A stretch of DNA of 32,000 bases from Chloroflexota bacterium (GTDB taxonomy: Bacteria > Chloroflexota > Anaerolineae > Anaerolineales > UBA11579): contig JACPVG010000019.1 of the NCBI GenBank assembly GCA_016191875.1, positions 58,020-90,019 of the forward strand, in the 5' to 3' direction. The notes below the pieces were generated by a model, which saw only the letters and a list, made by a program, of their open reading frames with translations, was not told the DNA's origin and ran no database searches. Shown here one piece after another: positions 8,144 through 29,767 of this stretch. Each line of letters opens with the position of its first letter. Within the stretch, counting starts at the first letter, position 1. A program made the position numbers and the translations under genes.

Positions 8144-8257
8144 GCCGCCTAGGCGGGTCCGGCGCGGCAAGGCCTTGTGAACCTCGTCAGATCCGAAAGG
8201 AAGCAGCGATAAGCAGGTCGCCTTGGGTGCCGCCGGGTTGCCTGCCTGGGCATTTTT
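8144..8257 (+). ncRNA. ffs: Signal recognition particle RNA (small bacterial 4.5S type); ends approximate
   Basis: GUCAGAUCCGAAAGGAAGCAGCGAUAAGCAGG (8187-8217) matches the universally conserved domain IV core of E. coli 4.5S RNA (GUCAGGUCCGGAAGGAAGCAGCCAAGGCAG), with a GAAA tetraloop at 8195-8198. The flanking arms (8144-8186 and 8207-8251) fold into one long imperfect hairpin. TTTTT follows at 8253-8257. Confidence 0.85.
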
Positions 8258-16778: not shown

Positions 16779-17576
16779 ATGCAGCCGGGCATCGACGACC
16801 TCCTGCGGCTGGCGCGCGGCGCGGGCGATATCCTGCTTGCCCACTTCGACCGCCCCTTGAAAATCGACCATAAGGGAGCAGTGGACCTCGTTACCGAGGC
16901 CGACCGCCAGTCTGAGGACTACCTGCTGGCCGAGATAAGGCGCGCCTGGCCGGAGCACAGCATTCTGGCGGAAGAGAGCGGCCAGCAAGACGGCACCAGC
17001 GATTCGGCCTGGCTGATCGATCCGCTGGATGGGACGACAAACTTCGCCCACGGTCTGCCCATCTTTTCCGTGTCCATCGCTTTTGCAGATGCCCAAGGCG
17101 TGCAGTTGGGCGTGGTCTGTGACCCGACTCGCGCCGAAGCCTTCTGGGCGGCGCGCGGGCAGGGCGCCTGGCTGGGTCAGCGACAGCTGCACGTCAGCGA
17201 CGTTCGCGATCTGGTCAACAGCCTGCTGGTGACCGGTTTCCCCTACGACCGGGCGGCCAACCCGGACAACAACCTGGATTATTTCAACCACATCATGCTG
17301 CGTTGCCGGGGAATCCGGCGGCTGGGTTCGGCGGCGCTGGACCTGGCCTACGTGGCAGCCGGGCGGATGGACGGCTTCTGGGAGATTCGCCTCCAACCCT
17401 GGGATGTGGCGGCCGGAATGCTGATCGCTCAAGAGGCCGGCGCGGTGGTCACCCGTCTGCACGGGGAGCCGGATGTGCTGCGCCGGCCATGCAGCGTGCT
17501 GGCGGCCAACCCGGCTCTACATCCCCTGCTGTTGAACGAGATGCTGCGGGTGCGGGAACAGCGCGCTCAACCCTGA
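16779..17576 (+). CDS. suhB: Inositol monophosphatase family protein
   Basis: AEESG...WLIDPLDGTTNFAHGLPIFSVSIA...PWDVAAG are IMPase/SuhB motifs. Confidence 0.88.
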   Translation: MQPGIDDLLRLARGAGDILLAHFDRPLKIDHKGAVDLVTEADRQSEDYLLAEIRRAWPEHSILAEESGQQDGTSDSAWLIDPLDGTTNFAHGLPIFSVSIAFADAQGVQLGVVCDPTRAEAFWAARGQGAWLGQRQLHVSDVRDLVNSLLVTGFPYDRAANPDNNLDYFNHIMLRCRGIRRLGSAALDLAYVAAGRMDGFWEIRLQPWDVAAGMLIAQEAGAVVTRLHGEPDVLRRPCSVLAANPALHPLLLNEMLRVREQRAQP

Positions 17577-18385
17577 TTGTGGCGCAGCCGCGCGGCCAGC
17601 TGGCCGAAGTCCACCGGCGCGGTCATGTCCAGAGTCAGCGGGGTAACGGCTACATGTTTCTTGCCTAGCACCACGTGAACGTCGCTGTCTTCCGGGAAGA
17701 GTTCGAGGTTGGTCTCCATGGTATAACCCAGCGCCTGAGGTTCATCTAGCTTATGGCGCGCTGGCGGCTGCGGCACATAGTAACGCGCCGTTGCCAACCG
17801 GGTCACTTCCCAGGGAGTATCCTCGCTCGCTCCATACGGAACTTCCACTTTCAGGAGCTGTACAGAAGGATCGAATCCGCCGGAGATCAGGCTCTGGGCG
17901 AAATACCTCGTGAAGTGAGCGGCGACCTTGAAATCGATTTCGCGACTGTAAGAGAGATGGTATTCTTTGGCGGTATCCAGCGAGATCGCCAAGGAAGGGA
18001 TGCCATGCGCGGCGCTTTCCATGGCGGCCCCAACCGTCCCGGAAATGGTGACGCCCGTGCCAAGATTGAGGCCGTAGTTGATTCCGGATACCACTACATC
18101 TGGCGCGGCGGGCATGATCTCCAGGATGGCATGTTGCACGGTCTGAGCCGGGCTGCCGCCGACGGCGTGCACCGTCCACTCCTTGCCGTGAACCCGCATC
18201 GTCTGGGCGGTGATGCGCCCGTCGGACGTGGCAGGCATGGAGCGGCCTGCGCCACTGGACTGCTGGCGCGGGGCTGCTACCCAGACGTAACCGAGTTTGC
18301 TCAGGGCTTCCGCTGCCGCCCATAGGCCGGGCGAGTCGATGCCGTCGTCGTTGGTGAGGAGGATTTGCGGCTCTAAGGATTTCAT
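17567..18385 (-). CDS. surE: 5'/3'-nucleotidase SurE
   Basis: ILLTNDDGIDSPGLWAAAEAL...VSGINYGLNLG. Track ORF starts at 18418. The ATG at 18383-18385 (MKSLEPQILLTNDDG) gives the usual SurE N-terminus. Confidence 0.88.
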   Translation of the reverse strand: MKSLEPQILLTNDDGIDSPGLWAAAEALSKLGYVWVAAPRQQSSGAGRSMPATSDGRITAQTMRVHGKEWTVHAVGGSPAQTVQHAILEIMPAAPDVVVSGINYGLNLGTGVTISGTVGAAMESAAHGIPSLAISLDTAKEYHLSYSREIDFKVAAHFTRYFAQSLISGGFDPSVQLLKVEVPYGASEDTPWEVTRLATARYYVPQPPARHKLDEPQALGYTMETNLELFPEDSDVHVVLGKKHVAVTPLTLDMTAPVDFGQLAARLRHNQG

Positions 18386-18408: not shown

Positions 18409-18487
18409 AGTAGCCCACTGAGTGTCTTTTTGCATGGGTCTCCGACCTTCCCGCGAGATATTCCTCGAAAGATGGCTATGGGCTACT
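18409..18487 (-). ncRNA. Unclassified structured element, copy A (in the surE 5' leader)
   Basis: On the minus strand it reads AGUAGCCCA-N61-UGGGCUACU, a 9-bp closing helix. It is about 75% identical by hand alignment to 27159..27237 on the plus strand. Shared blocks are CAUCUU, CGAGGAA, CUCGCG, GGAAGG and AAGAC. It ends 23 nt upstream of the surE ATG. Confidence 0.5.
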
Positions 18488-19414: not shown

Positions 19415-19461
19415 AACAAACACGCGAGGACGTTCATCACGAACGTCCTCGCGTGTTTGTT
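19415..19461. terminator. Bidirectional intrinsic terminator: perfect 21-bp stem with a 5-nt loop
   Basis: AACAAACACGCGAGGACGTTC (19415-19435), loop ATCAC, GAACGTCCTCGCGTGTTTGTT (19441-19461). It lies between convergent genes ending at 19393 and 19461. T-rich tracts flank the stem on both strands. Confidence 0.8.
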
Positions 19462-22713: not shown

Positions 22714-22790
22714 TGGCGTCCTCGGCACGATTCGAACGCGCGACCTCTTACTCCGCAAGCAAGCGCTCTATCCAGCTGAGCTACGAGGAC
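22714..22790 (-). tRNA. tRNA-Arg, anticodon GCG as I read it; CCA encoded
   Basis: Minus strand: GTCCTCG TA GCTC AGCTGGATA GAGC G CTTGC TTGCGGA GTAAG AGGTC GCGCG TTCGAAT CGTGC CGAGGAC G CCA. This is a complete cloverleaf with 7-bp acceptor, TTCGAAT T-loop and anticodon-loop positions 34-36 = GCG. Confidence 0.9.
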
Positions 22791-22868
22791 GTTACCAACA
22801 TTTCTGGCCGCACACTGTGAGGCATACGACCGGTTGCGGCTGGGAAGTATACCAGCATTCACAACAGG

Positions 22869-22959
22869 CGGGGAGGGCGGGATTCGAACCCGCGACCGGG
22901 TTTTACCCCGGAACCCACTTAGCAGGCGGGCGCACTAGACCGGGCTATGCGACCTCCCC
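22869..22959 (-). tRNA. tRNA-Ser (GCT), class II with long variable arm
   Basis: Minus strand: GGGGAGG...CCCGC CTGCTAA GTGGG, variable arm TTCCGGGGTAAAACCCGGTC, GCGGG TTCGAAT CCCGC, CCTCCCC G. It is followed by CCT, so CCA is not fully encoded. Confidence 0.9.
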
Positions 22960-22972
22960 GAATGGATGTTGC

Positions 22973-23063
<91 letters not shown>

Positions 23064-25772: not shown

Positions 25773-26759
25773 TCACCCGTTTTCCACTGCCCGGCGGGCA
25801 GCCATCAGGTTGCCATGCGGGGCGATGATGGGGCTCACGCAGCCGGTCCCGAGAATCAGCCGCTTTCCGTCCGTGGCTTCCAGCGCGTTCCGGGCTTCGC
25901 GTTGGACGTGCTCAGGTGTGCCGAAGACCAACGTTTCTTCCTGGCGCAACCCACCGCACACCAGGCCCGAGAATCTTTGGCTGCCCTCTGCCAGGCTGGG
26001 GGGAGTTTCCCGGTCGTGCCAGTTGATCACCTGCACCGGGTAATCGGCGAGCAGGTCAAAGTGGACGTCCGCGCCGTGCAGGTGCAGGGCGTTCAGCCAT
26101 AGGCCGCTGGCGGCCTCCAGGCAGGCCAAGTCGTCTTCCCGGGCGACTTCTGCATACTCTCTGGCGCTCAACTGCCCGGCCCGGGCGTGCTGAACAGCGT
26201 AGAAGATGCCGCTGATGCCGGCCTGGGTCGCAGCCAGGATGAAACGCCGGGTGGACTCGGTGATGATCTTGAGAGCGCGGCGAAGTCGTTCGGGGTGTTC
26301 TTGCAGATGCTTGAGCAGGCGCGCGTCGCCAGCCAGTTTGCGAGCCTGTGCAAGTGGGCTGAACACGGTCTCTAACACGGGGGTACCCGGTTCCAGCGCG
26401 TCCACGATCATCTTCAGTCCGCCCAGTTGCTCGGCCAGGTGCCCGCTGTGTGGATTGTGCGGAATCAGTTTGTCCCAGTCCTCGGGCGTCTGCACCAGGG
26501 TTTCCGCCCGATCGCGCGTTCCATGCGGGTGGCCGCGCTATTCATCGGCCGCGCCCCAATCGTAGATGAAGTATGAAGAGGACGGGGTTACCTTGACCAG
26601 GTCCCAGTCGTACGTGCGCTGCCAGGCGAGGTGCGCCGCGGCCAGCGTCGCGGCGCACAGGTCGTCCACCGGGAAATGCCGCCAGAGCGCGACCGGCGGC
26701 CGGTCGGGGGTCTTTCCAGCCATGGCGGTTTCGATGCGTTGCCTGTGGGTGAGTGACAT
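25773..26759 (-). pseudogene. Uroporphyrinogen decarboxylase (URO-D/MtaA-like) family gene interrupted by one in-frame TAG
   Basis: Track ORFs 26538..26816 and 25773..26495 are in the same frame. They are separated only by a TAG (26538-26540) and 14 sense codons. Joined from the ATG at 26757-26759 they give 328 codons, a normal URO-D family length. Motifs: PDRPPVALWRHFP near the N-terminus and a TIM-barrel-like C-terminal part ending ILGTGCVSPIIAPHGNLMA. Confidence 0.65.
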
Positions 26760-26765
26760 GGTGCA

Positions 26766-26774
26766 GTTATACCA
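26766..26774 (-). promoter_or_regulatory. Extended -10 promoter placed for a leaderless URO-D family transcript
   Basis: Minus strand TGgTATAAC, then 6 nt (TGCACC), then the ATG at 26757-26759. No SD is possible in that space. Confidence 0.45.
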
Positions 26775-26877
26775 AAACGAATTGGTGGAGCAAAGAGGAA
26801 AACCCGGTTCATGCAATGAATGCGTTCAGCACGTTCCAGCCCGCTCTAGGGGAACCCTGCAAGCGCCGATTTCCGGG

Positions 26878-26906
26878 TTGCTAAACGCCTGCTCGTGTGG
26901 TAGACT
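26878..26906 (+). promoter_or_regulatory. Promoter of rpmB
   Basis: TTGCTA (26878-26883), 17-nt spacer ending in an extended TGg, TAGACT (26901-26906). A leader of about 60 nt runs to the ATG at 26974, with AGAGGA as SD. Confidence 0.5.
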
Positions 26907-26973
26907 TCGCTGGTTATTTCAAGCCAGTTACCCGGAATCATCCCGGTTCAAATGAAAGCAAGAGGATTCTACG

Positions 26974-27159
26974 ATGGCAAAGTGTGCAAACTGCGGTAAG
27001 GCGACGACATTCGGGCAGAACCGCCCGTGGTCCAAAAAGGCAACCAGGCGGATGTTCAAAGCCAACCTGCAAAAAGTGACCGTGCTGGAGAACGGCAAGT
27101 CGGTCAAAAAGGTGCTGTGTACGCGTTGCATTCGCACGATGGTGAAGACGCCGGTCTAA
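26974..27159 (+). CDS. rpmB: 50S ribosomal protein L28
   Basis: [56 protein letters not shown] matches the L28 pattern (MAk.C..CGK....G.n.shs...tkR.f.pNLq). Confidence 0.92.
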
Positions 27160-27237
27160 GTAGTCCATAGGCATCTTACGAGGAAACTCGCGCTGGAAGG
27201 CTGGGGTCCTTTATAAGAAGACTTTCGGTGGGCTACT
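27159..27237 (+). ncRNA. Unclassified structured element, copy B (between the rpmB stop and its terminator)
   Basis: AGUAGUCCA-N61-UGGGCUACU, a 9-bp closing helix with one U-G pair that exists only in this orientation. It has an internal CGAG-GAAA-CUCG tetraloop hairpin. It is homologous to the reverse complement of 18409..18487. It begins at the last base of the rpmB TAA. Confidence 0.5.
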
Positions 27238-27263
27238 TAGGCGGCTCTACCCTTTAACATTCG

Positions 27264-27293
27264 GAGCCACGGTAAGACCGTGGCTCTTTTGAT
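27264..27293 (+). terminator. Intrinsic terminator after rpmB and element B
   Basis: GAGCCACGG (27264-27272), loop TAAGA, CCGTGGCTC (27278-27286), then TTTTGATT. Confidence 0.8.
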
Positions 27294-27983
27294 TCAGGCT
27301 GTTGAATCGCTGCGCTGTTCAGCCAGCGCAGCATGCAGCGCGGCCATCCCGGCTGCGAGGCCCTGGGGGTGCTTGAACAGCGCATTCCCCGCCACGAACA
27401 CATCCGCCCCGGCGGCCCGTGCCAGCGGCGCGGTTTCGGCGCCAATGCCGCCATCCACCTGCACGTGCGTTACTGACCCGGCGGCGTCCAGCCAGGCCCG
27501 AATTCGGCGCACCTTGTCGAGCACCTCGGGCAGGAACGACTGGCCGGAATGCCCCGGATTGACCGTCATCAACAGAACCAGGTCCACGATTCCAAGTACT
27601 GGCTGAACCGCCTCGGCGGGCGTGCCGGGGTTGATCGCCACGCCGGCCTTGCAGCCCAGCCCGCGGATGACCTGGAGCGTGCGGTGCAGGTTCGGCCCGG
27701 CTTCGACGTGGATGGTCAGGCCGCCCGCGCCCGCTGCGGCAAAGGCTTCGATGTGCAGTTCGGGATTCTCCACCATCAGATGCACGTCCAGGTACAGGCG
27801 GCTGGCCCGCTTGCAGGCCTCCACGACGACCGGCCCCATCGTCAGGTTGGGCACGAAATGGCCGTCCATCACGTCGATGTGAAGCCAGTCGGCGCCGTTT
27901 TGTTCGGCTTCCCGGATTAGTTCGCCCAGGCGGGCGAAATCGGCGCTGAGGATGGAAGGGGCGATAAGCAGCCGGGATGGCAT
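27294..27983 (-). CDS. rpe: Ribulose-phosphate 3-epimerase
   Basis: IAPSILSADFARLGELIREAEQNGADWLHIDVMDGHFVPNLTMGP...DVHLMV...MTVNPGHSGQ...VDGGI are Rpe signatures. Confidence 0.92.
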   Translation of the reverse strand: MPSRLLIAPSILSADFARLGELIREAEQNGADWLHIDVMDGHFVPNLTMGPVVVEACKRASRLYLDVHLMVENPELHIEAFAAAGAGGLTIHVEAGPNLHRTLQVIRGLGCKAGVAINPGTPAEAVQPVLGIVDLVLLMTVNPGHSGQSFLPEVLDKVRRIRAWLDAAGSVTHVQVDGGIGAETAPLARAAGADVFVAGNALFKHPQGLAAGMAALHAALAEQRSDSTA

Positions 27984-29695: not shown

Positions 29696-29767
29696 TGAGC
29701 GCGACAGGACTCGAACCTGTAACCAATAGCTTAAAAGGCTACTGCTCTGCCATTGAGCTACGCGCCC
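29696..29767 (-). tRNA. tRNA-Lys (TTT)
   Basis: Minus strand: GGGCGCG TA GCTC AATGGCA GAGC A GTAGC CTTTTAA GCTAT TGGTT ACAGG TTCGAGT CCTGT CGCGCTC A. It is followed by CCT, so CCA is not encoded. Confidence 0.9.

Follow-up and report, generated by a model that had tools for sequence, protein, structure and literature searches.

A two-copy 79-nt palindromic element beside rpmB and surE in an Anaerolineae chromosome, a candidate lineage-specific small dispersed repeat

The spacer between rpmB and the convergent rpe gene of an Anaerolineae chromosome contains a 79-nt segment (copy B) whose ends pair with each other and which recurs, inverted and 8.7 kb away, upstream of surE (copy A). The initial annotation of this DNA described the pair as an unclassified structured element, and its account of copy B implied a conserved structured RNA tied to rpmB. 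Is the element such an RNA, or did it reach these two sites by other means? The 32,000-nt stretch that we analysed (the window) is an ordinary chromosomal region carrying cytochrome b/c genes, a ksgA-like rRNA methylase gene, SRP RNA, surE, LytR, tRNAs, rpmB, rpe and a Ser/Thr kinase gene, and no transposase, integrase, HUH or RAYT-like gene was found among the 33 window ORFs scanned.

Table 1. Positions of the element, its parts and neighbouring features in the window, and of hairpin family members on other contigs (contig:positions)
Feature	Position	Strand	Basis or remark
Copy B of the 79-nt element	27159..27237	+	between rpmB stop codon and terminator; two-copy covariance model 106.8 bits
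Copy B closing stem, 5′ arm (AGUAGUCCAU)	27159..27168	+	pairs with 27228-27237 in minimum-free-energy and consensus folds
Copy B closing stem, 3′ arm (GUGGGCUACU)	27228..27237	+	minimum-free-energy and consensus folds
CGAG-GAAA-CUCG internal hairpin, copy B	27179..27190	+	read directly from sequence
rpmB (ribosomal protein L28)	26974..27159	+	ORF list; Pfam Ribosomal_L28
Intrinsic-terminator-like hairpin with T-run, common to convergent rpmB and rpe	27263..27287	+	strong
rpe (ribulose-phosphate 3-epimerase), convergent with rpmB	27294..27983	-	Pfam; same neighbour in L018 and L020; synteny anchor
Copy A of the 79-nt element	18409..18487	-	divergent SH3-domain gene/surE spacer; two-copy covariance model 107.2 bits
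CGAG/CUCG internal hairpin, copy A, loop GAAUAU	18467-18454	-	read directly from sequence
surE (5′/3′-nucleotidase)	17567..18385	-	translation; 100% match to MBI3159506.1, SurE of a Chloroflexota MAG
Bacterial small SRP RNA	8151-8250	+	68.9 bits
Cluster of three tRNA genes	22717-23063	-	
Further tRNA gene	29696-29767	-	
Hairpin family members	L008:503-600, L009:884-977, L011:4996-5090, L012:4996-5091, L013:4995-5090		
Hairpin family members	L014:3993-4088, L015:3996-4093, L016:3994-4088		
Hairpin family members	L026:17031-17128/17274-17371/17517-17614/19435-19532		

The two copies are homologous. Copy B reads AGTAGTCCA-61 nt-TGGGCTACT on the plus strand and copy A, taken as the reverse complement of its interval, reads AGTAGCCCA-61 nt-TGGGCTACT, with coordinates, terminal strings and 61-nt interiors as they were first reported. 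An ungapped comparison finds 60 of the 79 positions identical, whereas other 79-mers from both window strands match copy B at 19.8 positions on average (s.d. 3.8) and at 36/79 at most, which upholds the claim that the likeness exceeds that of unrelated intergenic DNA. A degenerate 27-nt pattern from the 5′ half, with up to three mismatches allowed, matched copies A and B alone in the window and nothing in 100 shuffles. The blocks common to both copies are CCATAG, CATCTT, CGAGGAA, CTCGCG, GGAAGG, AAGAC and GTGGGCTACT, and every block that had previously been named as shared is present in both.

The element has sharp edges: the similarity ends at 10-bp inverted termini, AGTAGYCCAT...GTGGGCTACT, beyond which the flanks are unrelated. 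Conservation peaks at the ends and in the 5′ subterminal part, and the centre is variable (9/17 columns differ between columns 45 and 61 of the 83-column alignment of the two copies). The G+C content of the element is 48–51% versus 62% for the window. No reading frame is open in both copies, each being broken by stops in at least one of them, and a coding function is ruled out by these stops in every shared frame.

In both copies the termini form a 10-bp closing stem, AGUAGYCCAU/GUGGGCUACU, with one or two G·T pairs. The sole difference between the two stems is a C-G pair in copy A versus U·G in copy B, as the initial annotation had observed, and pairing is kept on the proposed strand; the two U·G pairs of the copy B stem become A·C mismatches on the opposite strand. 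The internal CGAG/CUCG hairpin reported for both copies is also confirmed, its 4-bp stem being kept despite loops of different length, GAAA in copy B and GAAUAU in copy A. Predicted folding energies indicate a clear orientation preference for copy B only, at −31.4 kcal/mol (z −3.65) in the proposed orientation and −18.7 (z −1.72) on the opposite strand; the corresponding values for copy A are −27.6 kcal/mol (z −2.90) and −29.2 (z −2.70). Copy A folds about equally well antisense. The interior structures predicted for the two copies disagree. Base changes within pairs comprise, besides the exchange in the closing stem, one putative double change in a weak interior pair, and covariation statistics need more than these two sequences.

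Neither copy matches a recognised RNA family, in agreement with the initial annotation, which had called for an Rfam check. At gathering thresholds, Rfam 15 reports four tRNAs and the SRP RNA, all of them ordinary, in the whole window and nothing else. With the cut-off relaxed to E = 10, scans of both copies place nothing over the element; the permissive matches lie on the terminator near copy B or are noise far under the gathering scores. Mismatch patterns, self-BLAST and a two-copy covariance model recover the two copies alone within the window. Run with filters off, the same model found no third copy in about 35 kb of this genome, made up of the window and a ~3 kb extension from Logan contigs (the same DNA is present in SRR12113421), and it found no copy in about 88 kb from five related contigs.

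Broader searches were likewise negative. A 21-nt block identical in both copies had one chance cyanobacterial match among 185,579 representative genomes (one per species) and is therefore no widely conserved motif. The strict element pattern had no match in JGI metagenomes, scans of viral contigs gave nothing or chance matches, and neither plasmids nor phages yielded a BLAST match to the window copies; a plasmid BLAST with 8 kb of window sequence was uninformative. Gene callers predict a spurious ORF across copy A, and a protein search with it yielded no candidate further copy; a literature search for the stem sequence returned unrelated primers only, and no similarity to named repeat families appeared in the Rfam and BLAST collections searched. 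The sequence family of the element had no counterpart in the databases searched.

The orthologous sites of relatives bear on the origin of the element. Copy B begins, as had been noted, on the last A of the rpmB TAA stop codon, and a strong terminator follows after a 25-nt spacer. The distance from the rpmB stop codon to rpe, 134 nt in the window, is accounted for by the 79-nt element, this spacer and the terminator; it is 62–64 nt in relatives. Three distinct relatives (L018/L019, L020 and L021; L28 87–88% identical) keep the order rpmB→ ←rpe ←kinase, and in each the rpmB stop codon is followed by about 30 nt and an analogous terminator, with the element absent. The rpmB coding sequences align with those of the relatives up to the stop codon, and L021 shares GGTCTAAG too. 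Copy B thus looks like 79 nt inserted after the rpmB stop codon and ahead of a terminator that was already there.

Copy B is flanked by TA on both sides (TA-element-TA) and may have inserted at a TA. Such an insertion would have converted GTC-TAG-GCG into GTC-TA[A...T]TA-GGCG with a stop codon kept; if the TA was duplicated, GTC-TAG-GCG would already have ended rpmB, and the first A of the element would have recreated TAA.

Other features of this site were recorded. In L020, a 15-nt mini-hairpin, TACCCAT-T-GTGGCTA (L020:10190-10204), lies 3 nt past the rpmB stop codon at the site orthologous to copy B and resembles fused element termini (TAGYCCAT/GTGGGCTA). A match of this quality would be expected by chance in the orthologous spacers with a probability of about 0.01, in a comparison made post hoc, and the mini-hairpin could be a relic, a proto-site or a coincidence; local alignment detected no significant element remnants in L005 or L020. 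Synteny with the relatives breaks directly upstream of rpmB, where the window has URO-D-like, HD and cupin genes versus Asp23-FakA-DegV-DegV-RecG in the relatives, and is kept downstream with rpe and the kinase gene. The 129-aa ORF directly upstream of rpmB (26566-26955, +) has no Pfam match.

Copy A ends 23 nt upstream of the surE ATG, in the presumed surE 5′ UTR, and with these 23 nt alone between element and start codon, surE transcription must start within or upstream of the element. The SH3–surE spacer is 240 nt long in the window versus 78 nt in L003/L004 (SurE 74% identical), which keep the order unknown gene–LytR–SH3↔surE and lack the element. It is also absent upstream of surE in L005 and L006. 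The flanks of copy A are AA and CA, with no TA, and the SH3–surE spacers of the window and its relatives are too diverged to align at the copy A junction.

Two further observations concern this neighbourhood. An ATG within copy A, preceded by GGAGA, opens a 17-codon upstream ORF (18435-18382, −) whose TGA overlaps the surE ATG (ATGA), an arrangement that could couple surE translation to its own. Copy B has no equivalent ATG, and this upstream ORF is thus a property of the insertion site rather than of the element. Between the convergent SH3-domain and LytR genes, a 47-nt near-perfect palindrome (ACACGCGAGGACGUU...AACGUCCUCGCGUGU, 19415-19461) lacks a clear T-run and is probably a terminator-type hairpin working in both directions.

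Taken together, the element-free syntenic relatives, the palindromic boundaries, the conserved ends around a variable centre, the low G+C content and the location at ORF ends argue for a small palindromic repeat and not for a conserved cis-regulatory RNA. The implied RNA tied to rpmB finds no support in the rpmB spacers of the three relatives or in the surE spacers, all of which lack the element. The reading that we favour, with a probability that we put near even, is a lineage-specific, non-autonomous small palindromic dispersed repeat of the MITE/REP kind. Such a repeat would have come to lie in two spacers of a chromosomal region of this Anaerolineae lineage that is ordinary in all other respects. 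The enzyme that moved it would work in trans from another place in the genome and recognise its termini; it could be a transposase that uses the inverted repeats as substrate or an enzyme that handles the hairpin in single-stranded form. Both copies would then be carried in mRNA, sense to the neighbouring gene, copy B in the rpmB 3′ UTR and copy A in the surE 5′ UTR, where so stable a hairpin might incidentally affect how the mRNA decays, is processed or is translated.

The initial annotation had itself named a MITE/REP-type repeat as the outcome that would speak against a structured RNA. Absence at both orthologous sites fits that scenario better than a conserved RNA; the many genomic copies that it foresaw would be its decisive part. 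Weighing against the favoured reading are the number of known copies, two, 8.7 kb apart in the ~35 kb read, the AA and CA flanks of copy A, termini that are short for a MITE, the lack of a mobilisation gene among the window ORFs scanned, and the conserved 5′-half interior (CAUCUU-CGAG hairpin-GGAAGG), which exceeds what inverted termini alone require. The direction of change was considered as gain in the window lineage or loss in a common ancestor of the relatives; loss may have occurred, the relatives being distant (SurE 74%, L28 87–88% identical).

The main rival to an inserted repeat is a young, lineage-restricted functional structured RNA module, which we regard as rather unlikely. It would be a cis-acting mRNA element (for stability, processing or protein binding) or a pair of small-RNA paralogues, and its functional core would be the conserved 5′ half (CCAUAG-CAUCUU-CGAG hairpin-CGCG-GGAAGG), presented by the closing stem. 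Several properties of the element agree with this tentative alternative. Both copies lie sense to the adjacent gene and would therefore be transcribed, the one stem substitution pairs on this strand only, and the CGAG/CUCG hairpin is retained through a change of loop length. The 5′ half is long and near-identical amid otherwise uneven conservation, coding potential is lacking, and copy B folds better in sense than antisense (z −3.65 against −1.72).

These properties must be set against the comparative data. None of the relatives examined has the element at the orthologous position, and its conserved 21-nt block is absent from the representative genomes; the two contexts, a ribosomal protein gene 3′ UTR and a nucleotidase gene 5′ UTR, are functionally unrelated. 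The antisense fold of copy A is about as good as its sense fold, the predicted interiors disagree, two sequences give no covariation test, and a consensus scan detected no promoter-like site next to either copy. The functional and the repeat readings are compatible with each other, as repeats of this kind, when transcribed, often function as RNA.

A metagenome scan with the element termini alone (AGTAGYCCATAG-N45-70-GTGGGCTACT) returned two elements, in L008 and L009, whose mutual homology extends far past the search pattern, and BLAST from L008 revealed relatives on many alphaproteobacterial plasmids. The resulting set (L008, L009, L011-L017 and L026) shares a strand-specific hairpin of about 95 nt with the core GUCCAUAGG-AGGGA-CCC...GGG-AGGUN-CCUGUGGGC. 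Compensatory changes occur in 13 of its 27 pairs, a level reached by 0/500 shuffles, and slid controls collapse. This family is a genuine structured element; an Rfam scan of the L008/L009 hairpin gave no match, and the family may represent an element, so far undescribed, that acts as single-stranded DNA or as RNA. Its members follow DUF6878 in ssb-DUF932-radC leading-region-like blocks, lie inside the istB-distal end of IS21-like insertions or follow a tniA-tniB-tniQ module. In L012, the hairpin and IS21 interrupt a protease gene that is intact in L008, and in Acetobacter pAOF1 four same-strand copies, three of them in a 243-nt tandem, lie beside ssb and primase genes near the TraA relaxase gene.

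The window element resembles this family in being a strand-specific hairpin of similar overall length. The same six basal pairs (G-C, U·G, C-G, C-G, A-U, U·G), invariant in the family, occur in copy B with both wobbles, and some members have the same outer AGUAG/CUACU. The interiors, however, are unrelated: the alphaproteobacterial hairpin has inside it a long covarying helix that is rich in G+C and contains a conserved internal loop, AGGGA/GAGGU, whereas the window copies carry CAUCUU, the CGAG hairpin and GGAAGG. The contexts are wholly different as well, with conjugative leading-region-like blocks, IS21-like ends and a tniABQ module on one side and housekeeping chromosomal spacers on the other.

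A wider, undescribed strand-specific hairpin superfamily sharing the basal stem GUAGUCCAUAGG/CCUGUGGGCUAC, with the window element as a part of it, therefore appears quite improbable to us. The shared stem would be the site that one enzyme or host factor recognises in all members, as single-stranded DNA or as RNA, and the alphaproteobacterial mobile elements would be its best-sampled branch. The route by which the family was found, its well-supported structure and the invariant basal pairs speak for such a link, and a model built from independent plasmid members (R1) ranks copy B first in the window. That top rank corresponds to only 13.8 bits (E 0.26) over the basal stem only, and copy A reaches 7.9 bits (E 5.6) at rank 21, compared with 62–94 bits for true members, so that the covariance model gives no significant match to the window element. 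Furthermore, the search that returned L008 and L009 used the termini of the window element itself, and the family varies in its outer stem, which leaves an independent overlap of about 6 bp that could be chance given the many hairpin families. It would be surprising if the closing stem AGUAGUCCAUAGG/..GUGGGCUACU marked a widespread, undescribed class of strand-specific hairpin modules recognised as single-stranded DNA or RNA by a conserved factor, with one branch carried by conjugative leading regions, IS21-like ends and Tn5053-like modules of Alphaproteobacteria and a second one present as a miniature mobile element in Chloroflexota chromosomes.

An inert relic of a single local intergenic duplication within the 9-kb neighbourhood, with neither mobility nor function, would account for two known copies 8.7 kb apart and inverted, with nothing similar in the collections searched, but we deem it a poor candidate, as exact palindromic boundaries at both sites with flanks that share nothing are unexpected for a random segmental duplication, synteny across both sites is otherwise undisturbed, and conserved ends around a variable centre argue for constraint. 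The two inverted copies were also considered as the ends of a composite transposon or of an invertible segment, which was rejected: the synteny of the relatives runs straight through the copy A site, and the segment holds housekeeping genes and tRNAs.

If the element is an inserted palindromic repeat, it adds one more lineage-specific family of this sort, in a poorly studied uncultured Anaerolineae lineage. It would explain an unclassified "structured" stretch in a ribosomal protein 3′ UTR and caution against labelling it a regulatory RNA, and it could serve as an annotation aid and as a marker for strain typing and for tracing the mobilising enzyme. Its importance would be greater if genome-wide copies showed covariation, which would make it a mobile RNA module with a function, or if the basal stem in common with the alphaproteobacterial hairpins proved real. 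The latter family, with its strong covariation, strict strand bias and lack of an Rfam entry, may merit its own description.

Among known systems, we compared the element with bacterial MITEs, namely Correia/NEMIS of Neisseria, RUP of Streptococcus, ERIC and Nezha of cyanobacteria. It falls in their 70–300 bp size range (MITE properties per PMC3733652), and its terminal inverted repeats, AGTAGYCCAT/GTGGGCTACT around a short unit without coding capacity, let the whole unit fold as a hairpin. Like MITEs, it is intergenic next to coding regions, would be co-transcribed and is present or absent between related genomes, both orthologous sites being shorter and element-free in syntenic relatives at the genus level or further. 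The TA on either side of copy B recalls the TA-duplicating MITE families. Unlike in MITEs, the inverted termini measure 10–13 bp instead of the usual 15–30, a putative TA duplication is seen at one copy (TA/TA at copy B, AA/CA at copy A), two copies are known, and no parent insertion sequence with matching ends was identified.

The second comparison is with GTAG-tagged REP dimers and REPINs, which are mobilised by RAYTs. A REP unit is defined by a GTAG tag followed directly by its own short stem-loop with a stem of 6–13 bp, and head-to-head dimers have GTAG on the outside and units 20–100 bp apart (PMC3733652). Unlike in REPs, no stem-loop of its own is conserved across the two copies in either half of the element: none forms from the letters that follow GTAG (YCCATAGSCATCTT) and their mirror partner, and the sole conserved small hairpin, CGAG/CUCG, lies 16 nt from GTAG and is unmatched in the 3′ half. 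In this element GTAG is one of the paired parts of the long closing stem, and no RAYT gene was seen among the window ORFs scanned. A strict REP dimer is ruled out by the missing unit stem-loops. The likeness to this group lies in the ends and the setting. In both copies GTAG occupies positions 2–5, next to the outer 5′ terminus, and is mirrored by CTAC next to the outer 3′ terminus. Their stems contain G·T/U pairs, which in such repeats with GTAG-type termini suggest transcription (Di Nocera et al., PMC3733652), and GTAG repeats have been reported from Chloroflexi (PMC3733652). Copy B lies just after an ORF between convergent genes, and small palindromic repeats are intergenic, often within 20 bp of ORF 3′ ends between convergent genes, and co-transcribed (PMC3733652).
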